Positions 4,470 through 37,800 of a stretch of DNA of 37,800 bases are shown here, piece by piece. The position numbers and the translations under genes were made by a program. The stretch's first letter is position 1; the number at the start of each line of letters is the position of its first letter. The notes under the pieces were generated by a model, which was not told the DNA's origin, searched no databases, and saw only the letters and a list, made by a program, of their open reading frames with translations. Location of the stretch: contig DAHVFK010000001.1 of NCBI GenBank assembly GCA_027317055.1, forward strand, positions 1 through 37,800. Reading direction: 5' to 3'. Source of the stretch: Betaproteobacteria bacterium (GTDB lineage: Bacteria > Pseudomonadota > Gammaproteobacteria > Burkholderiales > SG8-39).

Positions 4470-4489
4470 CGGTTAGCCCGGGGCGCCCC

Positions 4490-5755: not shown

Positions 5756-5757
5756 CC

Positions 5758-6117: not shown

Positions 6118-6122
6118 GATTT

Positions 6123-8165: not shown

Positions 8166-8428
8166 TTCTTCGCCTCATCGATGCGCGGCGGGACTTGCCG
8201 GCTCCAATCGTGCTCCGCGCCCCACTCGGTTTCCCGCGCCCGCATGTCGTCGAGCGCCTCGTCGGGCTCATCGGGCTCGGGTTCGGCGTCGCCGTTGTCC
8301 TCGTCGTCACAATCGACCGCGGCTGAGGAATTGAGGCAGTTCTCGCACCAAAATCCGGGATAAAACAGCAGGCCGCCGCAGCCGTGGCATTCGCAGACCA
8401 GCACCTCGACAAAGCCCGGAAATTTCAT
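8162..8428 (-). CDS. zinc-ribbon protein with acidic C-terminal half (88 aa)
   Basis: Starts at ATG 8426-8428, which overlaps the recombinase stop (ATGA). Contains CECHGC...CENC motifs. The track N-terminal extension overlaps the recombinase gene and is rejected. Confidence 0.6.
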   Translation of the reverse strand: MKFPGFVEVLVCECHGCGGLLFYPGFWCENCLNSSAAVDCDDEDNGDAEPEPDEPDEALDDMRARETEWGAEHDWSRQVPPRIDEAKK

Positions 8429-11653: not shown

Positions 11654-12094
11654 TCACCAGCGCCGGGCGGCGAAGGCCTGCCCGGTGGTGCCGCCGTAAA
11701 GACTGACCGCACCCGCCGGGTGGTAGCCGTCCGGTGTGACGAAGATCGCGCCGGCGGCAACCGGGATAGACGCGCCGCCGGCGGTCGCCACCCCGACATC
11801 GCACACATAGAGCGGGTGCGTGAGGTCGAGATTGGCGACGAGATAGCCGTTGGTCGGGACGGCCCCGCCGAACAGTGTCTGCGCGCTGCCGCCGGCCGTG
11901 ATCGTGCCCGAGCCGTCCGATGCGGGCGCCGCGGCGGCGTTGATCACCGGCATCGGCGCACTCGAGCTGACCGGCGTGGCGACCCCGCCGACGAGCGCCG
12001 CCTCGACATGCTCCGGCACCAAATTGGACTGCGCGTCGCTCTGTGTGGCGATCGTCTGCACGGCGGAATTGGCGTCCTTGATTAGCAGGGCCAT
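11654..12094 (-). CDS. hypothetical protein (146 aa)
   Basis: ATG 12092-12094 is preceded by GAGGAG. It is the first gene after the intrinsic terminator. Confidence 0.6.
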   Translation of the reverse strand: MALLIKDANSAVQTIATQSDAQSNLVPEHVEAALVGGVATPVSSSAPMPVINAAAAPASDGSGTITAGGSAQTLFGGAVPTNGYLVANLDLTHPLYVCDVGVATAGGASIPVAAGAIFVTPDGYHPAGAVSLYGGTTGQAFAARRW

Positions 12095-12152: not shown

Positions 12153-12557
12153 CTAAAAGCTGCGGGCTTCGACCCAGACGGAGGCCTGGCCGGTGCAATA
12201 GACCGAGACGCCGCCGATCGGGATGTAGCCTGGCGGCGTGGTGTAGGCGACGTTGGCTCCGGTCACCGGATCATGGCCGAACGGGAAGCCATGATTTGGG
12301 CCGGCATTGCCCATCGCCGCGTAGTCGTCCTCGGCCCAGCATTGATTGAGCCCGTTTTGTGCGGCCGGAACGGCGAGCGTGAAGCCGTGCTGCGGTTTGA
12401 AGTTCCAGGTGATGACGGTCGGAACATTGGCGGTCACGTACTCCGACCAGTCGCAGACGTAGACGTAGCCGGGGGTGCACGGCACGGCATAGGCCGCGCC
12501 GGCGAACGCGGTGGCCGAGAGGCCAAAGAGGGCGGCCGAAAGCAACAAGCGTTTCAT
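12153..12557 (-). CDS. small secreted Cys-containing protein (134 aa)
   Basis: MKRLLLSAALFGLSATAFAGAAYA-VP signal peptide from ATG 12555-12557. The mature part has 4 Cys. Confidence 0.7.
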   Translation of the reverse strand: MKRLLLSAALFGLSATAFAGAAYAVPCTPGYVYVCDWSEYVTANVPTVITWNFKPQHGFTLAVPAAQNGLNQCWAEDDYAAMGNAGPNHGFPFGHDPVTGANVAYTTPPGYIPIGGVSVYCTGQASVWVEARSF

Positions 12558-12761: not shown

Positions 12762-13406
12762 TCATGCGGCGAGCGCGCCCGCCGGTCTGCGCAGCCACCA
12801 GGCAAGCCCGAGGAGCGACACGCCGAGTAGCGCCAGCGTGCTTGGTTCGGGCACGGCCGCCCGGCGGCCCACGATCTCGCCCGAGGAGATCACCGCCGTC
12901 TCGCTGCCGGTGGTGTGCGACAGCGCCGACAGAAAGACCCCGCGCGACAGGTTTTCGAGGGCGATGTCGATCGCCGCGGCAGCGCCGGCGAAGGTCGAGA
13001 GGAACGTGGCGTCGCCGCTGCGGGCGCTGATCGTCAGCGTGCCGATCAGATCGGGGTTCGGCGAATCGTCCTTGAGCAGCGACCAGCCGACCGTGCCGGC
13101 GAGGCTGTCGCCATCGACGCCATGATAGGCGAGCGCCTGGCTGCCATGGATCGCAAAGTTGCCGCCGGAGATCGTTCCGCTGGTGAGCCAGGCGAGCGGC
13201 CCCAGCGTGTAGCCGCCGAGGTCGGAACCAAAGAGCGCGGTTCCGTGCGCGGCTGCGCCGGCGACGTTCAGCGCGCCGCCCCCGGTGCCGGAAAAGCTGT
13301 AGTAGCCGGCGGCGCTGTTGGCGATGGTGATTTGCGCGGCGTGCGCGGCGCCGGCGGCGAGGCCAATGGCGCAACCGAGCGCCAGGGCTGGAATCCTTGT
13401 CTTCAT
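12762..13406 (-). CDS. PEP-CTERM sorting-domain protein (214 aa) with Sec signal peptide
   Basis: N-terminus is MKTRIPALALGCAIGLAAGAAHA-AQ. C-terminus is VPEPSTLALLGVSLLGLAWWLRRP, i.e. PEP motif, TM helix and basic cluster. AAGGAGA RBS upstream of ATG 13404-13406. Confidence 0.85.
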   Translation of the reverse strand: MKTRIPALALGCAIGLAAGAAHAAQITIANSAAGYYSFSGTGGGALNVAGAAAHGTALFGSDLGGYTLGPLAWLTSGTISGGNFAIHGSQALAYHGVDGDSLAGTVGWSLLKDDSPNPDLIGTLTISARSGDATFLSTFAGAAAAIDIALENLSRGVFLSALSHTTGSETAVISSGEIVGRRAAVPEPSTLALLGVSLLGLAWWLRRPAGALAA

Positions 13407-13473
13407 GGCCAGGTCGTCTCCTTGCCAGGGGTGTGCCGCGGAACCGCCGCGGCGCGGATCTGGGCTGTCGCGC

Positions 13474-13938
13474 TCACTGCGCGGCATCGGCGAACAGAGT
13501 GGCGAGATCGCTGGCCCGGTGCGGCCACACGCTGATCCGCAGCAGCGGCTTGTCGCTGTAGCGCTTGATGACCTGGCCCTCGACGATCTGCTTGTCGTCG
13601 GCCCAGAGCATCCCGTTGCACGCGTCGCAGATTTTGCCGAGGTTGTCCCAATCGGGCTTGACGGTCGGCGCGACCATGCCGAGCAGCGCCTCGCGCCGTT
13701 TTTTGCCAGAGAAGGAAGTCGGGATCGGGAAATCCGCCTCGATCAGGACGCGAAGCGCGCAGGTAAAGAGCGGGCGGCCGTCCATCGCCTTTTGCGCGGC
13801 GAGCCGTAAATTTCCCTCGTACTGCGCGGTCTTCTCGTCGGGGTGGGTGACGAAGTAACCATTCGGCAGGCGGTCGCGACGCACCGCGCCCTTGCCTCGG
13901 GGATGCCCGATCATCTCGACGACAAGCGGCCAGGTCAT
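13474..13938 (-). CDS. rusA: RusA-family Holliday junction resolvase
   Basis: 154 aa from ATG 13936-13938. KPDWDNLGKICDACNGMLWADDKQIV matches the RusA catalytic-region pattern. Confidence 0.85.
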   Translation of the reverse strand: MTWPLVVEMIGHPRGKGAVRRDRLPNGYFVTHPDEKTAQYEGNLRLAAQKAMDGRPLFTCALRVLIEADFPIPTSFSGKKRREALLGMVAPTVKPDWDNLGKICDACNGMLWADDKQIVEGQVIKRYSDKPLLRISVWPHRASDLATLFADAAQ

Positions 13939-21668: not shown

Positions 21669-22029
21669 CGGCTATCGCACCCTGGCCGAGATCGCCGCCG
21701 AGCTCGATGTCACCCCGCGCTGGCTGCGCGAGATGGTGCGCGACGAGAAAATTCCGGTGTTGCGCCGGGGCCGGGTGATCCGCTTCGATAACCTCGCCAT
21801 CCGCGCCATCGAGGAGAGCCTGCGATCGCCCTCAAAATCATCCGCCGGCGCGACACCGGCGCGCTCACCATCGTTGGCACTGTCGCCGGAACGCGCGTTA
21901 GACGCCGCGCTCAAAGCGACGACCCGGCCCTCGCCCGCGAGGAAGCGGCGACCCTCGAAGCGCAGCTCCTGCGCGACGCCTGGCACGGGCAACGTCGTGG
22001 CGCTAAGAGCTTCGCCGAGGCCGCCTTGA
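21661..22029 (+). CDS. excisionase-like HTH protein; only the first ~55 codons look genuine, the rest overlaps int
   Basis: TLAEIAAELDVTPRWLREMVRDEKIPVLRRGRVIRFD is an excisionase/MerR-type HTH. GTG start. No stop in this frame until 22029. Confidence 0.55.
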   Translation: MADGYRTLAEIAAELDVTPRWLREMVRDEKIPVLRRGRVIRFDNLAIRAIEESLRSPSKSSAGATPARSPSLALSPERALDAALKATTRPSPARKRRPSKRSSCATPGTGNVVALRASPRPP

Positions 22030-22883
22030 GCTATCTGGCCACAGCCCCGCGCAGCGCCGGCGACAAGGCGCGGCTCAACCGCATCCTGCGCGCGCTCGGC
22101 ACCGCACGCCTCGCCGACATCGACCAGGGCATGATCGACCGGGTGCGCGCCAAGGTGCTGCGGCCGGACGCCGCCCCGGCGACGGCGGCGCGCGGCGTGG
22201 TGATCCCGATCCGCGCGGTGCTGCGCCATGCGGCGCGCCGCGGCTGGTGCGATCTGCCCTTTGTCGAGACGCCGCGGCAGCCGCAGGGGCGCACCCGGTT
22301 CCTGTTGCCGGCCGAGGCCGAGCAGCTTGTAAAGGCTGCGGCTCCGCATTTGAAAGGCTTGCTGATCTTCCTCTTGTGCACCGGGGCGCGGCTTTCCGAG
22401 GCTTTGGGATTGGAGTGGCGCGATGTCGATCTACAAGGTGCGCGTGCCATCTTCTGGGCCGACCAGACGAAGTCTCGCCGCCGGCGCACGGCTCGGCTGC
22501 CCGCGCGAGCCCTTGTGTCTCTGGCCGCGTTGCCGGGACGCGACGGGCATGTGTTCCGTACACCCCTCGGCGAGCCCTACCGCACCAGCCGCGAGCGCGG
22601 CTACGGCGGCCAGATCAAAACCGCCTGGCGCGGCGCGCTGAGGCGCGCCGACAAATCGGTACAAATCGGTACATTCACCCCGCACGACCTGCGCCACACC
22701 TGGGCGAGCTGGCACTACGCGCTGCACCACGACATCCTCGCGCTGAAGGCCGAGGGCGGCTGGTCATCGGTCGAGCTGGTCGAGCGCTATGCCCATCTTT
22801 TGCCCGCCGGCCACGAAGCCGAGATCCGGGCGTTTTGGCACGTGGCTGACACGGACGCCGGGAGTGATCGCGCAAGCGCATGA
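21825..22883 (+). CDS. int: tyrosine integrase; the conserved coding frame starts upstream of the first canonical start (TTG 22026)
   Basis: HDLRHTWASW ... VERYAH catalytic motifs. Upstream in-frame sequence IALKIIRRRDTGALTIVGTVAGTRVRRRAQSDDPALAREEAATLEAQLLRDAWHG is clearly protein-like. There is no ATG/GTG/TTG between the in-frame TAA (21789-21791) and 22026. Confidence 0.8.
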   Translation: MALKIIRRRDTGALTIVGTVAGTRVRRRAQSDDPALAREEAATLEAQLLRDAWHGQRRGAKSFAEAALSYLATAPRSAGDKARLNRILRALGTARLADIDQGMIDRVRAKVLRPDAAPATAARGVVIPIRAVLRHAARRGWCDLPFVETPRQPQGRTRFLLPAEAEQLVKAAAPHLKGLLIFLLCTGARLSEALGLEWRDVDLQGARAIFWADQTKSRRRRTARLPARALVSLAALPGRDGHVFRTPLGEPYRTSRERGYGGQIKTAWRGALRRADKSVQIGTFTPHDLRHTWASWHYALHHDILALKAEGGWSSVELVERYAHLLPAGHEAEIRAFWHVADTDAGSDRASA

Positions 22884-23016: not shown

Positions 23017-23505
23017 GTGACGCGACGCAACGAGACGCGAACGCACCGGAGGCGCTGGCACGTGGCGGGCACGGCGGTTGCCGCGCTGTTCCTGATCGCC
23101 GCGTCGCCGAGCGCGGTGCTGACGCCGGGAGCGGTCGCGACGAGCGACCCGGACGTGATCTGCCATCGGGGCTACAGCAGCACGCAGCGCCTCTATAGGA
23201 CCGATCGAGCGGCCTATTGGCGGCTGCGCCGCGAGGTGTTCGCCGAATATCGGGTGCCGGCAAGCGAGGGGCGGCAGTTCGAAGTCGATGACCGCATTCC
23301 GCTCTGCCTCGGCGGCGAGCAGGTGCTGGCGAATTTGTGGGCTCAGCCCCGGTTCGGCCCGGACAACGCCGAGGAGAAGGACCGGATCGAGGCGCTGGCC
23401 TGCCGAGCCGCTTGCCGGGAGCACACGCGCGCGGCGATCCTGCGCTGGCAGAACGCCTTTCGCGGCGACTGGCGGCGCATCGACATACCGCCGAACGGAT
23501 GGTAA
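23017..23505 (+). CDS. exported HNH-nuclease-like protein (162 aa) with His-to-Asp change in the DH motif
   Basis: GTG start. N-terminal signal/anchor VAGTAVAALFLIAASPSA. C..GYS...FEVDDRIPLCLGGEQVLANLWAQP...AEEKDRIE follows the secreted HNH-family pattern (recalled). Confidence 0.55.
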   Translation: MTRRNETRTHRRRWHVAGTAVAALFLIAASPSAVLTPGAVATSDPDVICHRGYSSTQRLYRTDRAAYWRLRREVFAEYRVPASEGRQFEVDDRIPLCLGGEQVLANLWAQPRFGPDNAEEKDRIEALACRAACREHTRAAILRWQNAFRGDWRRIDIPPNGW

Positions 23506-23920: not shown

Positions 23921-24112
23921 TCAGCGCCCGAGGAGGTCGAGGACGCCGATCGCGGCCAGCAGCAGGATAGCGAGCTGGCCGCTGATCGCGAGCAGTTGGC
24001 CGAGGGCGCGCAGGATCAGGATCGCGATGGCGACGCTCGGCGCGCCGGCGGCCGGGCCGCGCGAGCCGGGGAAGCGAACCACCTCGGCGTCTTCGGGCAG
24101 ATCGCCCATCAT
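23921..24112 (-). CDS. small membrane protein, holin candidate (63 aa)
   Basis: Long hydrophobic stretch SVAIAILILRALGQLLAISGQLAILLLAAIGVL. Last gene of the late arm. The start overlaps the upstream stop. Confidence 0.45.
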   Translation of the reverse strand: MMGDLPEDAEVVRFPGSRGPAAGAPSVAIAILILRALGQLLAISGQLAILLLAAIGVLDLLGR

Positions 24113-24387
24113 CTGATAAACCAGTGCGGCATTAGGCTGCCGAGGAGGCTGATGCCGCTGGCGATTGCGGCTGCGACGAAGCCCGAGCGGCGGGAGGAAC
24201 CCTGCAGCTCGCCTTCGACGACGCCGAGCCGCTGCCCGACGAGGAAGATGCGGTCATCCTGGCGCGCCTGGCCGCTCTCGACCAGATCGGAGAGCCGCCG
24301 CGCCTCGACGCCGTGCGCCTCGACGGTGGCGCGGATCGCCCGCAGCTCGCCATAGATGACGGTGGGGGAAATAGCGTCTTCGGGCAT
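24109..24387 (-). CDS. C-terminally TM-anchored coiled-coil protein (92 aa), lysis or fibre accessory candidate
   Basis: ATG 24385-24387 overlaps the depolymerase-like gene's stop (TGATG). C-terminal FVAAAIASGISLLGSLM. Confidence 0.5.
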   Translation of the reverse strand: MPEDAISPTVIYGELRAIRATVEAHGVEARRLSDLVESGQARQDDRIFLVGQRLGVVEGELQGSSRRSGFVAAAIASGISLLGSLMPHWFIR

Positions 24388-26870
24388 CACGGGCACACAT
24401 TGACGACGTTGGCGTTGTTCCAGAGCGTGCCGGTCACCATGCCGGTGCAGCTGGTCGGCAATTTGAAGGTGCCGTAATTGTTGCCGGTCGCCGGGGTGAG
24501 CGAGACGATCCGATAATTCGAGCCATCCCAGAGCAGCTGCATGAACTCGTAATTGCTGCTGGCGAGGGTGACCGAGCCGAGCGCGTTGCCGCCGCTGCCC
24601 TCGGGCATCAGGATCTTCTCGCCGGCGCCGCCATTGACCGCGATTACCATGGATTTGCCGTTGTCGCGCGAGAACCCCATGGTCCAGCCAGGATAGATCG
24701 TGCCGACCGGCGGCAGCGTGACCGAGAGGCCGGCCGAGGTGTTGTACGAACTGAGCGCGTTGCCGCCATCGGAGATCGCCGCGACATAGGTGGCGGCGGT
24801 CGGGAAATGCCAGCGGTTGATCGAGAAATTGGCCCCGGTCATGCCCATCAGGGTCGCGGTCGCCGGGGTGATATTGGTCACCCGGAAGCCGGTCCCGTCA
24901 TAGCGGAGCGCCATGAACTCGTAATTCCCGGCGGCGAGCGCTTCGCTGGTGACGGTGGCACCGGATCCGGGGAACAGGATATGCCCGCCGGCGGTGCCGT
25001 TGACCTGGACGTTGGCGATCTTGCCGTTGTCGTTGGTCAAGCCGATGGTCCAGCCCATCGGCAGGCCCGTGGTGGTCGGCAAGGTGACGGTGAGGGTTCC
25101 GGCGGTCGAATTGTAGGCGCTGATCACATTGCCGTTGTCGGCGATGGTCGCGGCATAGGTGCTGGCGCCGGTCGGGAAAGACCAGCGCGAGATTCCAGCC
25201 GAGCCAAGCGCGCCCAGCGCCTGCCACGTCGCCGGGGTCGCATCGATGACGCGGAAGTTTGAGCCCGATCCCGAATTGTCATATTGCAGCACCAGAAATT
25301 CGTAAGCGCCCTGGGCGGTGTTCGCGAGGCTGACCGAAGTGGCCGTCGCCCCGGATCCTGGCCAGACGATATGCCCGTCGGCGACGTTGATGGTCATGCC
25401 CTTGGTGTTGTCGGTCGCGAAGCCCATCGACCATCCGTTCGGGATGGTGCTGGTCGCCGGCAAGGTCACCGTCAGCCCGGCCGCAGTGTTGTAGGGCGAC
25501 AGCACCGCGCCATCGTCGCCGAGCTGGGCGGTGTATCCCGAGGTCGACGGGTAGAGCCAGTTCGACGGCCAGGGCGGCGGCTGGAAGCCGTTGAAGAGCG
25601 CGGTGTTGCGGCTCATCGACAGCACTCGCCAATTATTGCCGTCGGCTTCGAGGCGGACATACTCGTAATTGCCGGCGCCCAGGGAGATCGAGGCGAGGCT
25701 CTTGTTGCCATAGACGATGCGGGCGCTGTCCGGGACCGCGATCGTCATGCCCTTGCCGTTGTCCGAGGCGAACCCCATCGACCACCCGGTGTTGATCGAG
25801 GCCATCGCCGGCAGGGTGACCGCGAGCGAGGCGCCGGTCGCGTTGTAGGAGCTCAGCGCCTCGCGATCATCGACCGGGGCCGCGGTGTACGTGCTGGCGG
25901 TCGGGAACAGCCATTTGAGCCGCGAACCCTGGCCCATCACCGAGAAGCCGGTCGAGAGCGGCCCGTAATTGGTGACGCTCGCATATTGCGGGTTCACCAG
26001 GACATTGTTCGTCGACCCCGTGCCGTTGATCGCGGTCGTGCAATTGAAATAGGGCGAGATCCAGGTGTTGTTGCCGTTGTGCGAATTGGTCACCGAGAGG
26101 CAGATCGGCGAGGCCTCGAAGTCGAAGCCGAAGATCGTGTCCGAGAAGCTGTAGCCGTTTTCGAGCACCATCGCCCGGCCGCCGGTGCCGTTGGCGCTGC
26201 CGGCGCCGGAGATCCGCGAGAACTGCACCTGCTCGAGCGCGATGCCGGCCGCACCCCCGGAGGCGTCGCACACGGCGAAGATATCGCTGTCATAGACCGC
26301 GTTGAATTGGCAGCCGCCCGACGCGGCGTTGGTGCTCGAATTGTTGACCAGCAGGTGGTCGATCTTGAAGGAATTGTGCTGGTCGGCGAAGTTGGCGAGC
26401 CCGAGGACGAAGGCATAAGCCGGGGTGTCGGCGAGGACGAAGAGCGAGCCCTCTTCGTGAAAATAGAAGCACGTGGTCGGGCTCGACGGGGTGCCTCCCG
26501 AGCACTCGACTTGGAGCACCGGCCCGCTGGCGACCGTGCGCCCGTCGAGGGTCGCGCCGTCGCTGATCAGCCGGAACCCGAGCCCGGCCTGGCCGGCATA
26601 GTCGATCGTCAGCAGCGAGCTGACCTTGTATTTGCCGGAGGGGAAATAGAGCGGGTAGTTGCCGGTGACCGCCTGGCCGATGCAGGTCTGGATGGCGCTC
26701 GTCGAGTCCGTGGTGTCGGTCGGATCAGCGCCGCACGCCGCCACCACGTTGATCCATGCGGGCGAGGCCGCAGGTGTGGTCGCGTGCGCGACCTCGGCGA
26801 ACAGCACACCGAGGATCGCCGCGGCGAGCGCGAACGGGAGCGCCCAGAGCAACAGCCGGCGGATGGTCAT
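24387..26870 (-). CDS. signal-peptide-bearing pectate-lyase-fold (depolymerase/tailspike-like) protein with four ~100-aa tandem C-terminal modules (827 aa)
   Basis: MTIRRLLLWALPFALAAAILGVLFAEVAHA-TT signal. DPTDTTDSTSAIQTCIGQAV..YPLYFPSGKYKVS is the pectate_lyase_3-type N-terminal signature. Repeats begin W(L/S/H)FPT..TY.A...D.G..LS.YN. Confidence 0.8.
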   Translation of the reverse strand: MTIRRLLLWALPFALAAAILGVLFAEVAHATTPAASPAWINVVAACGADPTDTTDSTSAIQTCIGQAVTGNYPLYFPSGKYKVSSLLTIDYAGQAGLGFRLISDGATLDGRTVASGPVLQVECSGGTPSSPTTCFYFHEEGSLFVLADTPAYAFVLGLANFADQHNSFKIDHLLVNNSSTNAASGGCQFNAVYDSDIFAVCDASGGAAGIALEQVQFSRISGAGSANGTGGRAMVLENGYSFSDTIFGFDFEASPICLSVTNSHNGNNTWISPYFNCTTAINGTGSTNNVLVNPQYASVTNYGPLSTGFSVMGQGSRLKWLFPTASTYTAAPVDDREALSSYNATGASLAVTLPAMASINTGWSMGFASDNGKGMTIAVPDSARIVYGNKSLASISLGAGNYEYVRLEADGNNWRVLSMSRNTALFNGFQPPPWPSNWLYPSTSGYTAQLGDDGAVLSPYNTAAGLTVTLPATSTIPNGWSMGFATDNTKGMTINVADGHIVWPGSGATATSVSLANTAQGAYEFLVLQYDNSGSGSNFRVIDATPATWQALGALGSAGISRWSFPTGASTYAATIADNGNVISAYNSTAGTLTVTLPTTTGLPMGWTIGLTNDNGKIANVQVNGTAGGHILFPGSGATVTSEALAAGNYEFMALRYDGTGFRVTNITPATATLMGMTGANFSINRWHFPTAATYVAAISDGGNALSSYNTSAGLSVTLPPVGTIYPGWTMGFSRDNGKSMVIAVNGGAGEKILMPEGSGGNALGSVTLASSNYEFMQLLWDGSNYRIVSLTPATGNNYGTFKLPTSCTGMVTGTLWNNANVVNVCP
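24486..25916 (-). repeat. four tandem protein-level modules (aa ~319-420, 438-548, 562-672, 686-795)
   Basis: Shared pattern W.FPT..TY.A...D.G..LS.YNT.AGL.VTLP....I..GW.MGF..DNGK...I.V......PG......S.LA..NYEF..L..DG.N.RV...TPAT. Confidence 0.8.
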
Positions 26871-28232
26871 TCAGCGATAGCCTTTGCAAGACCAGGCGAG
26901 GTTGTCGCCAGCGGTGAGGGTCGCGACGCCGACGATCGCCAGCACCGTCGATGAGGGCTGCGGATAGAGCACCGCGCCGGTCGATTCATCCCAGACCGAG
27001 CAAACGGGAGCATTCGTCCAAGCCGCGGCGAAGGTCATCTGGCAATAGCCGCCGGGCGACGTTCCGAGATGCACCCGGCCGATCGCATCGTTGCCGGCGA
27101 CCGTGGCCCCGGTCCCGCAATTCGCCGCCGCGGTCGGCGCGGTCCCGGTCACCTCGAAATGATCCGGCAGCCGCAAGGTCGAGAGCGTGCCGCTCGCGAT
27201 ATTGGCGGCGTTGGTCGCGTCGGTGTTGCAGCTCGCCGCCGCATCCGACAGGTCGCCGCACGCGGGCTGCGTCGCCGCCGGGACGCCCGCAGTCGAGATC
27301 GCGTCGATCCATTTGTGCGCGACGGCCACGAGGCTCTCGACGCCGCCCAGGACGCTCGCGGTCGGCGCGGGAACAACCAGGCCGTTCAGATGGCCGCCGC
27401 TGTCGGTTTCCGGGATCGTGTTGACGCCGGTCCCGGCGACCGGATACCCGGTCGAGAGGATGAGCCCGGTAGTCCCGCTCCACCCCGGCACATAGCCGCT
27501 GGTCGACGAGCCGGGGCCGGTGACCGCGCCGAGCATCGCCAGCATCTGGGCGACCGAGCAATCGAGCGGTGTGGCGGAGGATCCGGTGTTGTTGCACTTG
27601 GTGGTGTGCGCGGCCATCGTGCCGAGCTGCGAGTTCGGCAGCCCGGAGACGAGATTGTTGTTGATGTGGCCGCCGGAGTCCGTCTCGACGACGGTGTTGA
27701 CCCCGGTTCCAGCGACCGGGAGCCCGGCCCCGAGCAAGGTGCCGAGCGTGTTGTTCCACTGCGGCAGATAGCCGGAAGTCGAGCTGCCCGGCCCCGACAC
27801 CGAGGACGATCCGACCGCGTAGGAGGCCGAGCCGGAGGTCGCCGAGAAGGTGCCGGCCTCGCCGTTCGAGCGCACGACGAGCCCGGCGAAATCGGGCGGC
27901 ATGGTCAGTGACGACGCGGGCGCCTGGCCGGCGACCAGGATCGAGCCGACCGTCGTCTGCAGCACGAGCGCATTTTGCCCGTCGGTGACGAGGCTGATCA
28001 CCCAATTCGGCCCGACCGTGCCGGGGTTCGGCAGCACCACGGCGAGGCTCGCGACCGAGCCGCCGACCGCAGTGCCGGTTCCCTTGGCCGAGCTGATCTG
28101 CTCGCCATTGTCGGCCGCACTCGTCTGATAGCTGGCGACAGCGGGCGCGATGTAGGTTTGCGCCGGCGCGCGCACCGCGAACAGAGCCGCGAGCCCGAGC
28201 GCCAGGAGCGCCGCGCGAAGCCAAATCTGCAT
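26871..28232 (-). CDS. signal-peptide-bearing fibre-like protein (453 aa) with one copy of the same module and an internal duplication
   Basis: MQIWLRAALLALGLAALFAVRAPA-QT from ATG 28230-28232, 5 nt after the tape-measure stop. The stop abuts the next ATG. The track N-terminal 85 aa are rejected. Confidence 0.75.
   Translation of the reverse strand: MQIWLRAALLALGLAALFAVRAPAQTYIAPAVASYQTSAADNGEQISSAKGTGTAVGGSVASLAVVLPNPGTVGPNWVISLVTDGQNALVLQTTVGSILVAGQAPASSLTMPPDFAGLVVRSNGEAGTFSATSGSASYAVGSSSVSGPGSSTSGYLPQWNNTLGTLLGAGLPVAGTGVNTVVETDSGGHINNNLVSGLPNSQLGTMAAHTTKCNNTGSSATPLDCSVAQMLAMLGAVTGPGSSTSGYVPGWSGTTGLILSTGYPVAGTGVNTIPETDSGGHLNGLVVPAPTASVLGGVESLVAVAHKWIDAISTAGVPAATQPACGDLSDAAASCNTDATNAANIASGTLSTLRLPDHFEVTGTAPTAAANCGTGATVAGNDAIGRVHLGTSPGGYCQMTFAAAWTNAPVCSVWDESTGAVLYPQPSSTVLAIVGVATLTAGDNLAWSCKGYR
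27387..27794 (-). repeat. internal duplication GPGSSTSGY(L/V)P.W..T.G.....G.PVAGTGVNT..ETDSGGH(I/L)N (aa 147-190 and 239-282)
   Basis: Two near-identical ~44-aa segments read directly from the translation. Confidence 0.8.
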
Positions 28233-28237
28233 GCCGG

Positions 28238-30697
28238 TCAGCCCTGGTAAAGCCGGCCGCCGTAGCGGATTGCGTTGTTGATCGCCGCGAGGATCGACGG
28301 CCCGGCATTCATGACGCTTCGCGAATCCATCGCTGAAATGTTCAGATTGAAGGTGTGCCCCATCCCGCCGCCGCCGCCGGCGCCGATCATCCCTTGCAGC
28401 CCTTGGCTGATATCGGCCGGGAGGACCATTTCCTGGGAATGCAGCATCGCCGGGATGCCGCCCGGCCCGAGGCTCGGCACCGCCCATCCGCCGGCCGCCG
28501 ACGGCACGATCCCGCCCTTCGCGAAACCGAACAGCGAGCCGATGCCGCCGAGCAGGCCGAAGACGCCGCCAAGGCCGCCGCCGGAGGTGGCGCCCCCGAC
28601 CGCGCCGGAGAAATCCTGATTGCCGCCGCCGGACAGGCTGCCGAGCAACCCGGCCCCGCCGAACAAGCCGCCGAGCAGGCTGCCTCCTCCTCCGCCGCCG
28701 CCGAGCCCGAGCAGGCCCGAGATGCCGCCAGAACCGAACAGCGCGGAGCTGATCCCGCTGCCGACATCGCTCGTGCCGAAGATCGACTTGGCGATCCCGT
28801 CATAGAGCGAGCTGTAGAGGCTCTTGGCCCCTGATTGCAGCAGGGAGCCGCCGATCTGGCCGCCCATGTCGCGGCGCGAACCGCCGCTGAACAGCACCTT
28901 CTCGCCAGCCCGCTTGAGCGAGTCGCCAGCGGTGGAGAGTGCGGCGCTGGCGGCGTCGGTGATCGAGGCTGCGGCGGTTTGGAGTTCCGCCGCGGCCGAA
29001 AGCTTGCTCGCCGCTATCGTGAGCACGGGAGCGGGCGCGCCATTTCCGCCGCTGCTCCCTGTCGATGGGGCGATCGTGACGCTGAGGCCGCCCCCGTTGT
29101 CGTCTTGCGACAAGAGGGCAAGCAGCTTGGTGCTGATCGCGGCCGGAAGGACCATCTCCTTCGCGTGCAGCTGCGCCACCTGGTCGGAATCGACGATGCC
29201 GCCGCCGGCATAGGCGGGGAGCCCCGTCGTCAAGGCTGGAGCGTTCGATACCGCAGAGCTCAACGCCGCCGCTGCTGCCTTGGCGGTCGAAATCAGGTTT
29301 TGCGCCGGCGTCGCCGAAGGGCCGGGCAACAGCAGTGGCGCCGAGGGTGGCGCCGGGACTTTCGAGGTTACGGCCTCGCCGAGCTGGCGCTGAATGTCCG
29401 GCGCGAACGGCGTAACAAAACGGTTATAGAGCGAGCCGAGGATATCGCTCGTGCCGAGCAGCCCTTGGCTCGCGCCCGGAGGCGCGGAGGTGTCGAAGCG
29501 GCGCTGCCGCAGGGCGGACAGCACGTTAGCGCCGGGCGCGAACTTGGCGACGAGTTCGGCCGCGAGTTGGTTGGGGTCGGCGGTGGTCGCGACGCCGAAC
29601 GCCTTGGCGCCGCTCGCCGGATTGGCGAAAGCCCGCGGGAAGCCCTTGAGAAACGCCTTGCTCTCGCCAGCATAGGCCACCCGGTCGATCGCCTCGGCGA
29701 CGCCGGCGAGTGCTTCGCGCGATGCGTCGGAAAGGCCTGGAATAGTGGTCAGCAGGGCCGATATCTTTGCGACCTTGCCCTCGCCGAAGATGCCGGCCCC
29801 TTGCATGATCGACGCGAGGCGCGGCTGCTCGATTTCGGCACCGATCGCGCTGCGATTTTGCAGGGCTGCGGCCGCGGCGACCTGGCCGAGCACGGCCTCC
29901 GCGTCATAGGCGTGCTTGACCAGCAGCGCCAGTTGCGCGATGGCGACCGCGACGCCCGCCGCCACGCCGCCCCCGATGGCGATGCCGGCGGTGCCGACGG
30001 CTTTGAGCGCGATCTCGCCGATGCCGGAGTCGCGCACAAGCGCGCTGGTCGAGGCGATCATCTGGCCGCGCTGGTGGCGCATGGCGCCGTCGAAGATCGC
30101 GATGATGTGGCGGAACGACTGGCCGATCCGCAGCGATCCGAGGATGCCTGCCCCGCCGGCCGCCTTCTCGGCGGCAGCCGCGATTTCCGCCTCGGCCTTG
30201 GCCTTTTCCTTGGCGATATAGGCGCCGATGCTGCGCTGCGCCGCGAGCAACCCCGGTGCGGTCTTGGGGCCGTAGGAGGCGAGTGCGCGCTGCGCCGCGA
30301 GCAGGCCAGGCGGCGACTTCAACGCGGCGCGTGCGGCGGCCTCGGCCTCGCGGCGCAACCCGATCAGGCCGCGGATCGCGTCGCGCTCGGCGCCGATCGC
30401 GCCGGTGATCTCACTGCGCGCCGCTTGCCATGAACTCGCGGTCGCGTCGCCCCATTGCTTCTGCGACTTCTCGAACGACCGCAGGTCGGCGGCGAGGTCG
30501 CGGATTTTTGTGCGGTGCGCCTCGATCGCGTTGCCGATGCCGCCGATCTTGCCGCCGAGTTGGCCGGTTGCCGTCGTTGCCGAATTGGCAGCGTGCTTGA
30601 TCGCCTCGATATCGACGACGGCCTTGGCGCTCGCCTCGTCAAGGCCAACGACGCGGCCGCCGATGACGACCTTGATCTCGTTCGGCAGGTCAGCCAT
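28238..30697 (-). CDS. tape measure protein (819 aa)
   Basis: Length, helical Ala-rich body, Gly-rich C-terminal third and position right after the G/GT chaperone. Confidence 0.85.
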   Translation of the reverse strand: MADLPNEIKVVIGGRVVGLDEASAKAVVDIEAIKHAANSATTATGQLGGKIGGIGNAIEAHRTKIRDLAADLRSFEKSQKQWGDATASSWQAARSEITGAIGAERDAIRGLIGLRREAEAAARAALKSPPGLLAAQRALASYGPKTAPGLLAAQRSIGAYIAKEKAKAEAEIAAAAEKAAGGAGILGSLRIGQSFRHIIAIFDGAMRHQRGQMIASTSALVRDSGIGEIALKAVGTAGIAIGGGVAAGVAVAIAQLALLVKHAYDAEAVLGQVAAAAALQNRSAIGAEIEQPRLASIMQGAGIFGEGKVAKISALLTTIPGLSDASREALAGVAEAIDRVAYAGESKAFLKGFPRAFANPASGAKAFGVATTADPNQLAAELVAKFAPGANVLSALRQRRFDTSAPPGASQGLLGTSDILGSLYNRFVTPFAPDIQRQLGEAVTSKVPAPPSAPLLLPGPSATPAQNLISTAKAAAAALSSAVSNAPALTTGLPAYAGGGIVDSDQVAQLHAKEMVLPAAISTKLLALLSQDDNGGGLSVTIAPSTGSSGGNGAPAPVLTIAASKLSAAAELQTAAASITDAASAALSTAGDSLKRAGEKVLFSGGSRRDMGGQIGGSLLQSGAKSLYSSLYDGIAKSIFGTSDVGSGISSALFGSGGISGLLGLGGGGGGGSLLGGLFGGAGLLGSLSGGGNQDFSGAVGGATSGGGLGGVFGLLGGIGSLFGFAKGGIVPSAAGGWAVPSLGPGGIPAMLHSQEMVLPADISQGLQGMIGAGGGGGMGHTFNLNISAMDSRSVMNAGPSILAAINNAIRYGGRLYQG

Positions 30698-31321
30698 GGA
30701 CGCGCGCCTTCAGTGCGGTGAAATCGAGGGTGAGGCCCTTCAGCCCTTCGAGCACGTCGCGCTCGGTGAAGAGGCTGGCCGCTTCGGCGCGCAGCCGATC
30801 CATGCCGGCGGCGAAGGCGCTGGCGTCGGGCCGCGCGCGGTTCCTCGGCTTGACGCCGAGATAGGCGGCGACCAGCAGGTGCACCGGCGGATGCTCGGCG
30901 AGATAGGGGAGCAGCAGCTCCTCGACCTCGGGCAGAGTCAGCTCGTCGATGTCGCGAGGTCGATAGCCGAAGCTGGCGGCGAGGAGGCCGTAAAGAGAGC
31001 CCCAGTCCCCGCCGCCTGATCTTCCCCCGGCGGCGTCGCCTTCAGGCCGCTGCCGGTCAGCACCGCATTGAGGACCGCGCCGGCATTGCCGAGGTCGAGG
31101 AGGTCGAGGAGAGCGGCATCGTCGAGATCGGGGTAGTTGCGCCGCGCCGCCGCGCCCACGACGGCAACGATGGCGTCGATCGTATCGGCGTCCATGCCGA
31201 CGCCGGGCTCGCTGATCTGGCGCAGTGTCGGGTTGAGCCGGCGCAGCTGACCGATGGTGAGCGGCGGCACAATCCAGTCGCGCCCGCCCATCGACACGGT
31301 GACGCCGGGGAGCAGCGCCAT
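30690..31321 (-). CDS. tail assembly chaperone G (30938-31321, 127 aa) and predicted -1 frameshift G-T product extending to 30690
   Basis: The G start overlaps the tube stop (TAATG). The -1 frame is open from the CCGGGGGAA run (31021-31032) and reads GGGDWGSLYGLLAASFGYRPRDIDELTLPEVEELLL, resembling the RcGTA rcc01693-type chaperone segment. The T stop overlaps the tape-measure ATG. Confidence 0.7.
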
Positions 31322-32073
31322 TATTGCACCGTCGAGAGGTAGCCGATCGTGCCGGAGGCGTCGGCGAAGGCCGAGCCGTCGAGTTCGCTGATCGCCCACT
31401 CGTCGATCTTGTTCGGCAGCATCAGCTTCGAGGCGATGCACGCATTCAGGCGCAGCGCCTGGCCGAGGCCCTGATAGGTCTCGAACAAGGTCAGCTTGAA
31501 GGTCGGCGTGGTGCCTTGGAGCTGGTTGGAAATCGTGGTTTTGAAGCCGGTCGCGCTGACGTTGTAGGTGTAGGAGATCAGCACGGCGGCGCTCTCGTCG
31601 GCGGCAGAGAATGTGTAGACGCCGGTCGCGGCATTGACCGAATACTGCCCGGCGGTGGTCGGGGTCGTCACCCGCTGGAAGGCCAGCCCGGTCGCGGCAT
31701 AGACGACGCCGAGGTCATCGTTGAAGGTCGCGGCGTTGGCCACGGTGACCGTGTAAGGCGTGGTCGCCGGAACCGCTGCGGCTTCGAGTTGCGTCACCCC
31801 GAATTGGCCGGCCGCCGGCGACGAGCCGAAGAACAGGTCGGAATAGAGGTTGCCGAGGATCTGGGCGAATTTCGCGTTGAACGTAATCTTGCCCTGGCCG
31901 CGCGCGATTGCGACCGGGAACTGGGATTGCCCGTAGAGCGGCTTGTCGGTGAAATCGAAGGTCACCGAGATATCCTGAAGCCTGCCGAACTGGCGCGGGC
32001 CGATGCCCGTACCGGTCACATCGGTGCGCTCGCCCCAGAGCGCGCCGACGCCAAAGCTCAATTCAACCGACAT
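31321..32073 (-). CDS. major tail (tube) protein candidate (250 aa)
   Basis: Beta-rich and sits immediately upstream of the G/GT chaperone and tape measure. Confidence 0.6.
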   Translation of the reverse strand: MSVELSFGVGALWGERTDVTGTGIGPRQFGRLQDISVTFDFTDKPLYGQSQFPVAIARGQGKITFNAKFAQILGNLYSDLFFGSSPAAGQFGVTQLEAAAVPATTPYTVTVANAATFNDDLGVVYAATGLAFQRVTTPTTAGQYSVNAATGVYTFSAADESAAVLISYTYNVSATGFKTTISNQLQGTTPTFKLTLFETYQGLGQALRLNACIASKLMLPNKIDEWAISELDGSAFADASGTIGYLSTVQ

Positions 32074-37229: not shown

Positions 37230-37800
37230 TTAGGTCGTGGTGCCTTGGATGCGCAGATCGGCGCTGCCCTTGTAGGCGGTGGTGCCGGCCGGCAAGGTGA
37301 GGCGCATCCAGACACCCTGCGCGCCGGCGCTGTTCGGCGCGGCGCCCGAGGGCAGGTTGCCCGGCGACGGCACGTTGACGAGGGCGGGCTGGGTCGAGAA
37401 CGCGCCGCAGCCGGTCGGGACGAAGCTCGAAATCTGCTGGCGCGGGTTGGCGGTGTTGGTGTCGTTGAGCGCGGCGCAAAGGCCGATGTCGAGCAACGCG
37501 CCAGAGGGTCGTCCAGTCGCGGTTGATCGCCACAACATCGGTGCCGTAGCCGGCGGTCGCGACGATCTGGCGGATTTGGTTCGGCCCGGTGCCGCCGGTG
37601 GTGCGGATGATCATCCCGGACGAGACGCTGGCGCCGTCGCCGGTCTGCAAGAAAAACAGCGGCGGAGTGGTGCCGGCGGTATTGGCCGAGCCCGCCCGCG
37701 CGGTGTGCGCCGAGACGGTCGCGGTGTGGGCAAAGCACGCCACGTCGCCGACCGCCGCAGTGCCGCCCGGATTGGCGAGCGGGAACGAGCCCGCGACCGC
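37230..37800 (-). CDS. 3' part of the junction-spanning virion-module gene; frame disrupted near 37503-37512
   Basis: Frame of ORF 37222-37743 reads ...IVATAGYGTDVVAINRDWTT and then degenerates. Protein-like sequence resumes as GALLDIGLCAALNDTNTANPRQQ...RIQGTTT in the frame of ORF 37230-37538. Confidence 0.55.
37674..37800. repeat. Terminal direct repeat, copy 2 (identical to 1-127)
   Basis: Same comparison as copy 1. Confidence 0.95.

Follow-up and report, generated by a model that had tools for sequence, protein, structure and literature searches.

Phage tailspike depolymerases such as those of Sf6, P22, Det7, CBA120 and Klebsiella K2-2 (PF12708) are built on a pectate-lyase/GH28-related right-handed beta-helix and are encoded in the late operon. 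B827, a protein of 827 amino acids encoded next to one of 453 amino acids (A453) in the window, i.e. the whole 37,800-nucleotide stretch of DNA analysed here, is predicted to share both features, whereas its signal-like N-terminus, three invariant cysteine pairs and five beta-sandwich modules after the helix set it apart; B827 lacks an N-terminal anchor, and its family usually resides between terminase and portal. By its modelled fold B827 also belongs to the class of the secreted beta-helix proteins, among them the Vibrio cholerae RbmB lyase, pneumococcal PfbA and the alginate C5-epimerases, which are exported and act on or bind matrix polysaccharide; the likeness is at the level of the fold only, with 7-16% identity and no catalytic residues identified in B827. 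The tail tip of the GTA/phiJL001 type (DUF2460, a Phage_phiJL001_Gp84_N plus BR0599 hub, and a Phage-tail_3/Rcc01698_C megatron) follows the tape-measure gene (TMP) in every relative that we examined and is absent from the window in family, tblastn and profile-profile searches.

Morons of the lambda lom/bor type are exported prophage cargo encoded beside tail genes; a classic moron is expressed in the lysogen, between a promoter and a terminator of its own. A453 and B827 resemble such cargo as signal-bearing proteins of a prophage structural operon whose presence and position vary among relatives, but they are large receptor-binding-type mosaics whereas the lom/bor-type morons are small outer-membrane proteins. 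The MAT (mosaic adhesive trimer) fibres of Bdellovibrio serve outside the cytoplasm (PMC10769870). In architecture only, A453 and its orthologue P0002 are laid out like them, with a beta module of ~100 aa behind the signal, then fibre repeats, and at the end a tip that can be swapped; in contrast, MAT genes are chromosomal in a predatory bacterium while A453 lies in a phage late operon, and many MATs carry an S74 chaperone-protease domain for which A453 has no Pfam match, so that A453 may be likened to the MAT fibres rather than filed as a member. Our search of the literature gave no instance of tailed-phage fibres described with a Sec signal, only the MAT fibres and the figure that about 5% of soil-prophage CAZymes carry SignalP signals (PMC13507307).

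Gene layout of the closed circle

The initial annotation had described a 37.7-kb unit in which genes for proteins of 453 and 827 aa follow the TMP gene, and both statements held. An exact 127-nt terminal repeat closes the window into a circle of 37,673 bp, and the two genes lie on the minus strand after TMP, with lengths equal to those in the public gene calls on the same contig. The genes and landmarks are as follows.

1-127, no strand: terminal direct repeat, identical to 37674-37800 (exact 127-nt identity); one frame of a conserved gene spans the junction
4490-6219, minus strand: second signal-peptide cassette, sp153 (5758-6219) and sp421 (4490-5755, DUF3383 match), between terminase and portal
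23921-24384, minus strand: two small membrane-protein genes downstream of B827, one of ~92 aa with a C-terminal TM helix and one of 63 aa with a hydrophobic (probable TM) stretch (public gene calls and translations)
24387-26870, minus strand: B827, 827 aa, 10 Cys; predicted signal, beta-helix and five tandem beta-sandwich modules (PF12708, AF2, Foldseek)
26871-28232, minus strand: A453, 453 aa, 8 Cys; mosaic fibre-like protein with predicted signal (sequence and AF2)
28238-30697, minus strand: TMP, 819 aa, coiled-coil and Gly-rich, 3' of the major-tail-protein-like and chaperone genes
30938-31318, minus strand: tail-chaperone-like gene (tail block 30938-32073; the two genes of the block match phrog_8234 and phrog_7947)
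31321-32073, minus strand: major-tail-protein-like (MTP) gene of the same block

Given that the repeat closes the window inside a conserved gene, we rejected the idea that a contig end had cut off a baseplate. The window holds a complete set of head genes (terminase, portal, protease, capsid) and the set of a temperate phage (integrase, excisionase-like HTH, RecT/YqaJ, repressor, RusA); neck genes are fewer than in relatives, and several late proteins have no family assignment. The gene crossing the circle junction carries a frameshift and a 486-aa gene has a frameshifted N-terminus, either of which could be an assembly error.

The C-terminal 100 aa of TMP, a protein without any Pfam or PHROG match, are 54-62% identical to proteins preceding DUF2460 in the relatives L007 and L025, and the MTP-like and tail-chaperone-like genes share 35-69% identity with genes that precede TMP in 23 related loci. 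A homologue search with TMP gave the query alone, low-complexity words having probably filled the candidate list. A sibling contig of 37,569 bp (L004) is 94% identical as compared over 12.9 kb; metagenome scans with TMP and with A453 revealed no further siblings.

The TGA stop of TMP (28238-28240) is separated by 5 nt from the ATG of A453 at 28232, while the ATG of B827 abuts the A453 stop directly. A453 and B827 are packed tightly behind the TMP gene and are therefore read with the late operon. Unlike classic morons they are coupled to TMP: a crude scan, not built for alphaproteobacterial promoters, found no sigma-70-like promoter site in 22.8-31.5 kb, and no terminator was found 3' of TMP. 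The two small membrane-protein genes that follow B827 are probably of the holin or lysis type; the ~92-aa protein is 78% identical to its counterpart in the sibling.

Predicted signals and modules of A453 and B827

Both proteins had been described as starting with Sec-like signals, and their N-termini are indeed signal-peptide-like, with the features kept across homologues. That of A453 reads MQIWLRAALLALGLAALFAVRAPA, followed after the predicted cut by QT, with basic R6, a 14-residue hydrophobic core (A7-V20) and A22-P23-A24 before Q25; that of B827 reads MTIRRLLLWALPFALAAAILGVLFAEVAHA, followed by TT, with R4 and R5, a 20-residue core (L6-A25) and A28-H29-A30 before T31. The parts of the two proteins map to the window as follows.

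28161-28232, minus strand: A453 predicted signal peptide, residues 1-24, cut between APA and Q (sequence reading, own rule, AF2 helix 2-18 at pLDDT ~90, then a disordered linker)
27858-28154, minus strand: A453 N-terminal beta-rich module, residues 27-125, a divergent version of a B827 repeat (BLASTP)
27228-27797, minus strand: A453 fibre repeats, residues 146-335, two 'GPGSSTSGY..ETDSGGH' units and one 'LGGVESL..HKWI..ATQPACGDLS' unit (sequence reading)
26874-27182, minus strand: A453 C-terminal 4-Cys beta-sandwich tip, residues 351-453 (pLDDT ~80, the sole confident domain besides the signal helix)
26781-26870, minus strand: B827 predicted signal peptide, residues 1-30, cut between AHA and T (sequence reading, own rule, AF2 helix 3-27, low-confidence linker 23-33; like signals in homologues)
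25926-26756, minus strand: B827 predicted right-handed beta-helix, residues ~39-315 (pLDDT >90, Foldseek)
24471-25919, minus strand: B827 five tandem beta-sandwich repeats of ~95-115 aa each, residues ~318-800 (seen in the sequence and in AF2 secondary structure)

The layout of a Sec-type signal for signal peptidase I (basic n-region, h-region of ~7-20 residues, small residues at -3 and -1) was read in both by inspection and by a simple home-made rule, not by SignalP or another trained predictor. This rule flagged seven proteins of the window, one PEP-CTERM protein included, and none of the 21 others, which comprise every recognised head and tail protein; the recognised structural proteins have no signal and carry no cysteine (TMP), one (MCP and MTP) or seven (protease-scaffold fusion). 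Among homologues, 47 of 60 A453 clusters and 82 of 120 B827 clusters were flagged, and those left unflagged are mostly fragments or mis-called starts in which a signal is visible further in. The feature thus recurs in well over 100 homologue clusters, low-GC ones included, and the signal sequence drifts among diverged homologues while the signal features stay. As to Tat export, B827 and many homologues carry RR (T-I-R-R-L-L-L, M-R-R-L-L-W-L), yet the core is strongly hydrophobic (mean Kyte-Doolittle 2.4), and the A453 signal has no RR; lipoproteins were rejected, since neither signal has a lipobox cysteine. From these N-termini we infer that A453 and B827 would be exported.

The pectate-lyase-type signature that had been noticed at the N-terminus of B827 is borne out by a PF12708 match to residues 39-91 (E 1e-7, 32.4 bits against a cut-off of 27) and by the AF2 model (mean pLDDT 83.3, >90 over residues 39-310), which is a beta-helix. 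Foldseek against the PDB matched this helix at E 2e-11 to 1e-3 to tailspikes (Sf6, Det7, CBA120 and the Klebsiella K2-2 tailspike), polygalacturonase, rhamnogalacturonase and the RbmB lyase; GH28 enzymes and PfbA are also among the matches, tailspikes and tail fibres dominate, and no baseplate, hub or tube fold is among them. The cysteine pairs C123/C134, C187/C201 and C257/C277 are invariant across 91 sequences of the family, and one of the repeats weakly matches phrog_11518 'tail fiber protein'. Because the modelled helix starts at about residue 39, ~9 residues past the predicted cleavage site (most homologues have ~30 residues there), B827 appears to have no N-terminal particle-binding domain. 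By its fold it probably cleaves or binds polysaccharide.

A453 has no match in Pfam (S74 included), PHROGs, NCBIfam or the PDB sequences, and its AF2 model is poor (mean pLDDT 56.5; residues 23-224 nearly all <65 and mostly <50), with no Foldseek match below E 0.04. Its alignment is too diverse for a pattern search. Residues 27-111 align with residues 320-397 of B827 (BLASTP, E 4e-5), and the counterpart of this module in the orthologue P0002, which is 63% identical to A453, also bears a signal and is located 3' of the baseplate in L002, shares 39-44% identity with the repeats of B827 (E 3e-25). The fibre repeats weakly match a protein of Bradyrhizobium phage ppBdUSDA122-1 that is annotated as a tail fiber protein, and the 'LGGVESL..HKWI..ATQPACGDLS' unit is the part of A453 most widely common to its 60 matches in the alignment consensus. 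About 16 B827-family proteins end in a tip that shares 37-48% identity with that of A453; the four cysteines of the A453 tip recur in P0002 and P0007. Modules and tips are thus common to both families, and A453 and B827 are built from modules of phage receptor-binding proteins. We propose from the sequence that A453 may be a fibre-like lectin or adhesin with a swappable 4-Cys tip.

Comparison with the sibling gave a dN/dS of 0.115 for B827 and of 0.064 for the C-terminal part of A453 (dS about 0.32 in each case), which suggests that both are functional genes under strong purifying selection. B827 has more than 500 homologues at about 60% identity; none was found in 50,697 cultured phage genomes, and no A453 relatives were found in IMG/VR viral contigs.

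The tail-tip block and the slots of the two families

No Dit, Tal or baseplate protein was recognised among the window proteins by Pfam, PHROGs or NCBIfam, in agreement with the initial annotation, and a tblastn search of the window with the tail-tip proteins of relatives returned nothing, so that hidden baseplate remnants were rejected. We then compared the late proteins of the window by hhalign with DUF2460 and hub profiles built from the lineage (12 and 10 sequences, respectively) and obtained probabilities of at most 2.4%: at most 1% for A453 and B827 against DUF2460, and at most 0.7% for every late protein against the hub. Together with the fold evidence (a beta-helix for B827; residues 25-140 of A453 are too poorly modelled to speak against a Dit-like fold), these profiles led us to reject A453 or B827 as a cryptic Dit or Tal.

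In each of the 13 relatives whose sequence extends far enough past TMP, the Dit-like DUF2460 gene and the Gp84_N/BR0599 hub lie 3' of TMP; the window lacks this block. We infer that the block was lost from the genome rather than replaced. Because it follows TMP in all 13 relatives and is absent here, the element is probably tail-tip-defective, i.e. unable to build a tail tip alone. The two frameshifts, the internal deletion in sp421 and the reduced set of neck genes are further signs of decay, and the seven signal-bearing proteins add to its load of cargo.

The A453 gene, directly downstream of TMP, occupies the position typical of Dit, and the pair had been noted where Dit and Tal are expected. 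That the two stand there as substitutes is not supported: in L025 and L079 signal-peptide genes lie between TMP and a real DUF2460/hub block. The position after TMP alone is not diagnostic of Dit, because L025 has two signal-bearing genes there ahead of its DUF2460 gene (TMP, signal protein, signal protein with B827 repeats, DUF2460, hub). A B827 relative lies between terminase/p145 and portal in 61 of 66 IMG/VR viral contigs, 3' of the megatron in two and directly before DUF2460 in one; a B827-family gene lies 3' of the tail-tip megatron in L030, homologues occupy the tail-fibre slot behind the megatron in L030, L091, L100 and L002, a slot that closes the tail operon in L002 and L030, and a signal-bearing fibre relative lies inside a Mu-like baseplate operon. 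Related prophages thus offer at least four slots to the same families (terminase-portal, post-megatron, TMP-Dit and Mu-like baseplate), showing that the A453 and B827 families are movable accessories in soil alphaproteobacterial temperate siphophages.

The second signal-peptide cassette likewise differs in slot between the window and its sibling, where the equivalent pair (115 aa and 925 aa) comes immediately 3' of the B827 gene; relative to the 925-aa protein, sp421 has an internal deletion. The small genes that precede the large signal-bearing ones were rejected as a conserved partner, as p145 (which has no signal), sp153 and a 110-aa protein of L025 are unrelated.

Proposed export and the competing accounts

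The account that we favour, at a probability of roughly 0.6, takes A453 and B827 for exported accessories rather than parts of the tail tip, with the tail-tip block lost from this genome. Export as cargo is preferred because the same families occupy at least four slots, B827 has no particle-binding domain ahead of its helix, and cysteines are conserved in pairs. Of the initial suggestion that the pair is exported cargo beside a tip of unrecognised proteins, the first half therefore survives as the favoured reading, while the second is not supported, given the 13 relatives with DUF2460 and hub and the absence of this block here. The N-terminal signals would route both proteins via Sec to the periplasm, where signal peptidase I would cut behind APA in A453 and behind AHA in B827 and the paired cysteines would form disulfides. 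The proteins would then act on the cell envelope or on exopolysaccharide, either displayed on the surface or freed at lysis, and receptor destruction, matrix degradation and adhesion are possible roles. The tip usual in the relatives, i.e. the DUF2460 Dit, the hub and the megatron, would have been lost from this circle. Several observations speak against this account: the module make-up is exactly that of phage receptor-binding proteins, homologues in L002 and L030 occupy the classic tail-fibre slot, the tight coupling to TMP with no promoter-like site in the scanned region gives the look of structural genes rather than classic morons, and a circular assembly with a 94%-identical sibling of near-equal size points to an active lineage rather than a dead remnant.

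Much of the same evidence bears on the possibility that A453 and B827 are true virion receptor-binding proteins, a fibre and a tailspike, whose signal is unused or which mature with disulfides in the periplasm and join particles when lysis mixes the compartments. The architecture and the Foldseek matches dominated by tailspikes and tail fibres agree with it, as do the slot after the megatron in four relatives, the tight coupling within the late operon, the strong purifying selection, and an exchange of C-terminal tips between the two families like that seen in receptor-binding proteins; it also counts in its favour that tailspikes, that of P22 among them, bind to completed particles in vitro. 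However, a textbook basic/hydrophobic/AxA signal kept in very divergent homologues is hard to explain unless it is used, no particle-binding domain precedes the B827 helix, the terminase-portal position in 61 of 66 contigs is no tail slot, and the window has no baseplate for attachment. A tailed phage whose fibres are assembled from the periplasm is not known to us, nor did the literature search find one, and the earlier alternative of virion tail-tip proteins with signal-like N-termini found no positive support. We regard this possibility as unlikely.

It is doubtful, too, that the phage is fully functional, with A453 and B827 still as cargo and a tip made of unrecognised proteins, e.g. the frameshifted 486-aa protein (2939-4489) or a junction-spanning protein of ~290 aa. 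The circle is closed with its junction inside a conserved gene, there is a sibling of 37,569 bp, the genes for tail tube, chaperone and TMP appear intact, and unassigned late proteins are available, but wholesale replacement would be needed where every examinable relative uses DUF2460 and hub. The candidate genes lie in the head region, two of them frameshifted, and hhalign gave no tube-like or hub-like signal in them; to our knowledge a TMP-containing tail without Dit ring and hub is without precedent.

An element that forms heads and tail tubes by itself but borrows the tail tip of a co-resident relative, i.e. a satellite-like or helper-dependent one, would fit the complete head genes, the presence of tail tube, chaperone and TMP genes and the absent tip, and related prophages with compatible DUF2460 and hub tips abound in the same kind of bacteria. 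We give this very little weight: no positive evidence points to it, the gene set is that of a normal temperate phage rather than satellite-like, and, because the tail of a siphovirus is assembled from the tip complex onward, borrowing the tip only would need close TMP compatibility. Finally, high-GC genomes do yield Ala/Leu-rich N-termini, but the reading of the signals as chance hydrophobic stretches or wrong starts, with nothing unusual about them, is close to refuted, as the starts are fixed by tight packing behind prior stops and agree with the public annotation, the feature extends to low-GC homologues, and the rule flagged none of 21 other window proteins.

Returning to export, one may go further and suppose, as a long shot, that a widespread soil alphaproteobacterial siphophage lineage routes tailspike- and fibre-like proteins via Sec as a working part of its life cycle rather than as incidental cargo, with disulfides gained in the periplasm and the proteins either joining virions at lysis or forming an exported receptor-destroying and adhesin system needed for release or spread.

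The tip-less closed circular genome is a clean test case for whether elements of this sort are defective, helper-dependent or differently built. Export would matter for annotation, where genes of this kind are routinely named 'tail fiber', 'tailspike' or 'GH28-related', their signal being overlooked, and for how many carbohydrate-active enzymes soil prophages are estimated to encode. They would be a natural counterpart to the Bdellovibrio MAT fibres. If export is true, several hundred soil prophages would encode tailspike- and fibre-like proteins destined for the envelope or the outside instead of cytoplasmic assembly, and receptor-binding proteins would no longer be sharply set apart from secreted polysaccharide enzymes or adhesins.

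The circular genome and its tail module

The first 127 nt of the window (1-127) are repeated exactly and in direct orientation as the last 127 nt (37,674-37,800), defining a circle of 37,673 bp, and a conserved gene crosses the junction in one frame. The 127-nt identity together with the gene reading through the junction indicates that the circle is real and that nothing is missing beyond the ends of the window. The length of the repeat suggests the overlap of an assembler run at k=127. The gene content is that of a temperate siphovirus. The head and packaging genes encode a large terminase, a portal, a Mu-F-like protein, a protease-scaffold fusion (S78 + DUF6582) and a capsid protein (phrog_13692); the neck and tail genes encode an HK97-gp10-like neck protein, a tail-tube-like protein (phrog_8234), a chaperone-like protein (phrog_7947) and the tape-measure protein (TMP); the lysogeny and replication genes encode a tyrosine integrase, an excisionase-like HTH protein, RecT/YqaJ, a LexA-like repressor, RusA and a serine resolvase. 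The two recombinases are:

8425-9210, minus strand: serine resolvase/invertase-type recombinase
22026-22883, plus strand: tyrosine integrase

The closest cultured relatives are Brevundimonas siphophages (capsid identity 37-40%). The contig carries the label of a Candidatus Binataceae MAG, all relatives found belong to alphaproteobacterial MAGs, and the hosts of the close relatives are Stellaceae, Methylocella and Rhizomicrobium; the contig is probably a circular phage mis-binned in the Candidatus Binataceae MAG.

The initial annotation had described a tape-measure gene followed by two signal-type proteins of 453 and 827 aa, a description borne out by the ORFs, the public annotation and the N-termini:

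28238-30697, minus strand: TMP, an 819-aa ORF in the late operon
26871-28232, minus strand: A453, a 453-aa ORF directly after TMP
24387-26870, minus strand: B827, an 827-aa ORF directly after A453

The ATG of A453 lies 5 nt downstream of the TMP stop codon (TGA, 28240-28238) and the ATG of B827 abuts the A453 stop with zero gap. The public annotation and a separate assembly of the same sample give both genes these same limits, and a crude sigma-70-type scan revealed no promoter-like signals of their own. The pair is shown to be read with the late operon.

Pfam, PHROGs and NCBIfam searches assigned no window protein to a Dit, hub or baseplate family. Among 23 loci encoding relatives of the tail-tube-like protein, all 13 with enough downstream sequence carry DUF2460 (GTA gp12-type Dit) and a Phage_phiJL001_Gp84_N/BR0599 hub after TMP, the closest relative (L007, tube identity 69%) among them. 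Profiles of 12 Dit and 10 hub sequences from relatives, compared by hhalign with all unassigned late window proteins and with the A453 and B827 family alignments, gave probabilities of 2.4% or less, and tblastn of Dit, hub, 'megatron' (Phage-tail_3) and other tip proteins of three relatives against the window gave no match except an Ig-like domain in the tube gene. The family, tblastn and hhalign searches thus agree with the earlier statement that the 37.7-kb unit holds no recognisable Dit, Tal or baseplate gene, and the absence is real at the sensitivity available.

A probable Ig-like decoration domain of ~70-100 aa inside the tail-tube-like protein (31471-31785, minus strand) recurs in head-proximal and large tail-tip proteins of relatives, e.g. 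in Polewnik gp56 at residues 677-782.

Module composition and N-termini of A453 and B827

B827 matches PF12708 at residues 39-91 above the Pfam gathering score, and its AlphaFold2 model (91 homologues as input; mean pLDDT 83) consists of an N-terminal helix, a beta-helix from residue 39 to about 310 (pLDDT above 90) and five beta-sandwich repeats. Both results support the pectate-lyase-type N-terminus proposed earlier, and the predicted fold places B827 in the PF12708 beta-helix class. Foldseek matches in the PDB were the tailspikes of Sf6, Det7, CBA120, Klebsiella K2-2 and KP1 as well as GH28 polygalacturonase, rhamnogalacturonase, the Vibrio RbmB lyase and the PfbA adhesin, with no baseplate protein among them; the predicted viral structures matched were tail fibres, tailspikes and EPS depolymerases. 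Unlike virion tailspikes, of which an N-terminal anchor domain is a defining feature, B827 has no such domain. The pairs C123/C134, C187/C201 and C257/C277 are invariant in the 91-sequence family alignment. B827 homologues form >500 clusters (~60% identity), many of them on 0.2-1.4 Mb contigs of Stellaceae and other Alphaproteobacteria, and none occurs among 50,697 cultured phage genomes.

A453 matched no family in Pfam, PHROGs or NCBIfam and no PDB sequence; its sequence reads as a mosaic. Residues 27-125 are a diverged B827 repeat (E 4e-5), and the matching module in P0002, the A453 orthologue of locus L002 (63% identical to A453), shares 39-44% identity with the B827 repeats (E 3e-25). Given this homology, a Dit-like fold in residues 25-140 appears unlikely. 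The module is followed by two 'GPGSSTSGY...ETDSGGH' units and one 'LGGVESL..HKWI..ATQPACGDLS' unit, which are found in dozens of other proteins. The tip (residues 351-453) is a 4-Cys beta-sandwich, the sole domain besides the signal helix that AlphaFold2 modelled confidently, and the C-terminal tips of about 16 B827-family proteins share 37-48% identity with it. The whole A453 model is poor (pLDDT 56.5) and gave no significant Foldseek match, so that structural comparison, envisaged in the initial annotation for both proteins, was informative for B827, a beta-helix free of baseplate matches, but not for A453. Together, A453 and B827 are shown to be mosaics of receptor-binding-protein modules. 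Bdellovibrio MAT fibres (PMC10769870) carry a signal peptide and join a conserved beta-rich domain and a fibre to chimeric tips; A453 resembles them in architecture only and is not filed as a MAT member.

Sequence inspection of the N-termini, MQIWLRAALLALGLAALFAVRAPA/QT in A453 and MTIRRLLLWALPFALAAAILGVLFAEVAHA/TT in B827 (the slash marks the putative cleavage site), revealed uncharged hydrophobic cores of 14 and 20 residues, respectively, one or two basic residues each, and small residues at -3 and -1. In the AlphaFold2 models a helix covers both stretches and is followed by a disordered linker. Simple rule-based scoring, not SignalP, flagged A453, B827 and five more window proteins, and none of the 21 others, which include all recognised head and tail proteins. 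All nine homologues examined at full length, low-GC cases and P0002 included, begin with a basic, hydrophobic, AxA-type stretch, and these stretches are mutually unrelated in sequence. The same simple rule, again not SignalP, flagged 47/60 A453 and 82/120 B827 homologue clusters; most of the unflagged ones are N-terminal fragments or have extended or mis-called starts with a signal recognisable further in. By this rule both N-termini read as signal-type, with the basic n-region, hydrophobic core and AxA site described initially, and so do those of most homologues. Real signal peptides keep their features while their sequence drifts. The conservation of these features despite drift, together with the paired cysteines, argues that proteins of both families would fold outside the cytoplasm. 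Many B827-family members carry RR, so the route of B827 may be either Sec or Tat; its core is strongly hydrophobic. We found no report in the literature of Sec signals on tailed-phage fibre or tailspike proteins.

Gene positions in relatives, selection and decay

Exploring 66 IMG/VR contigs that carry a B827 relative, we found the gene between terminase (usually with p145, a 145-aa gene) and portal in 61, with both flanks visible in 53; it follows megatron in two, directly precedes DUF2460 in one and is uninformative in two. Of four chromosomal prophages, L005/L006, L034 and L035 use the terminase-portal slot and L030 the position after megatron. DUF2460, hub and megatron are present wherever the tail module of these contigs and prophages is visible. 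L025 (tube 53% and capsid 65% identical to the window) runs from TMP through a 110-aa signal protein and a 960-aa signal protein carrying B827-type repeats to a coiled-coil protein, after which come DUF2460 and hub; in L002, P0002 lies downstream of the megatron genes. A distant fibre relative in L031 (10001-11320; 439 aa, signal-bearing, with the A453 fibre motif) sits between Baseplate_J and Mu gp48, overlapping both, in a Mu-like myophage tail operon, so signal-bearing fibre-like genes in tail operons are not confined to one phage type. Given these several different slots, A453/B827-type genes are movable, and they occur beside a canonical tail tip rather than in its place. The initial annotation placed A453 and B827 where Dit, Tal or baseplate genes are expected; that they stand in for these is not supported by the relatives, which carry such genes alongside the canonical tip.

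The terminase-portal slot of the window (4490-6219, minus strand) holds a second signal-bearing pair, sp153 and sp421, of which sp421 matches DUF3383/E217_gp31_N (E 2.4e-16). In the 94%-identical sibling contig L004 (ENA ERZ25039540 contig_64700, 37,569 bp) the equivalent pair follows B827, and its larger member is a full-length protein of 925 aa, relative to which sp421 is internally deleted. The window homologue of p145 (146 aa, 11654-12094, minus strand; 65-68% identity) has no signal peptide and no Pfam match and lies 12 kb from B827; in 52 related loci p145 lies between terminase and the B827 homologue.

Between portal and protease, as many as ten unassigned genes occur in the chromosomal prophages L005 (14100-21500), L034 and L035, and several of these genes have a signal peptide or lipobox. 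In some elements of this lineage the portal is split or truncated or the terminase is missing, which points to decaying or domesticated elements that have kept the B827 homologue.

Comparison with L004, covering 12.9 kb of that contig, gave dN/dS of 0.115 for B827 and 0.064 for the A453 C-terminus at dS of about 0.32; by this measure both genes are under purifying selection. Elsewhere the window looks worn, the deletion in sp421 included. The junction-spanning gene is homologous to a 340-aa L005 protein as far as about residue 205; the frame then shifts near 37,500 (about 37,400-37,510, minus strand), and the final 63 residues are conserved in another frame. The 486-aa gene before the portal has a body whose frame differs from that of its apparent N-terminus MAFTIDGTATNTGNGAATLTT (about 4,380-4,470, minus strand). 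These frameshifts could be pseudogenes, programmed shifts or assembly errors. Between capsid and tube the window has fewer neck genes than its relatives.

Proposed exported cargo and probable loss of the tail tip

Further genes of the window encode proteins with a signal peptide or a basic, hydrophobic N-terminus:

12762-13487 (probable start 13406), minus strand: PEP-CTERM protein (PF07589, E 2.7e-7; TIGR02595 above cut-off)
12153-12557, minus strand: small protein of about 135 aa, with a signal (MKRLLLSAALFGLSATAFAGAAYA/VP) and four Cys, adjoining the PEP-CTERM gene; no family match
23017-23505, plus strand: 162-aa protein whose long N-terminus is basic and hydrophobic; it contains an HNH-like 'DDRIPLCLGGEQVLANLWAQP' motif and has conserved counterparts in L004 (89%) and L063 (35%)

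The PEP-CTERM protein bears the signal peptide MKTRIPALALGCAIGLAAGAAHA and the C-terminal sorting motif VPEPSTLALLGVSLLGLAWWLRRP; a phage-borne protein of this kind implies an exosortase-bearing host. We know of no description of PEP-CTERM cargo in a phage. Besides it, two further small signal-bearing proteins are encoded in the window, which fits a phage loaded with envelope-directed cargo in an exopolysaccharide-making host. The 162-aa protein may be an exported nuclease or a membrane-anchored enzyme.

We favour, with a probability of roughly 0.6, that A453 and B827 are exported accessory cargo acting on envelope or matrix, and that they follow TMP through loss of the Dit-hub-megatron block. 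Both would be exported and cut by signal peptidase I, and their cysteine pairs would be oxidised to disulfides in the periplasm. B827 would then act as a depolymerase with tandem binding modules and A453 as a lectin-like fibre, both on envelope or matrix polysaccharide, either displayed at the surface or freed at lysis. An ancestor with cassette genes beside the Dit-hub-megatron block, as in L025, L079, L030 and L002, would have lost the block, and the two genes would for that reason now follow TMP. The missing baseplate is most simply that of a defective derivative. Of the two interpretations offered initially, exported cargo or virion tail-tip proteins with signal-like N-termini, exported receptor-binding-type accessories are thus preferred; Dit/Tal substitutes are not, the tip having probably been lost instead.

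The module make-up of A453 and B827, and the tail-end slot of such genes in some relatives, would also suit true virion receptor-binding proteins, which would either stay unexported or mature in the periplasm and be attached once the cell has lysed; we consider this unlikely because the signals are conserved, an anchor domain is missing and the usual position is the terminase-portal slot. That the phage works with a tail tip of unrecognised type is slightly less probable again, a helper-dependent element is improbable, and chance or artefact is very improbable.

Seen as exported prophage cargo, A453 and B827 are comparable with morons and with those carbohydrate-active enzymes of soil prophages, about 5%, that bear a signal (PMC13507307); the pair differs from morons in lacking promoter-like signals of its own. 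The recurrence of a Sec-type signal on tailspike-like proteins across hundreds of soil prophages is worth testing.
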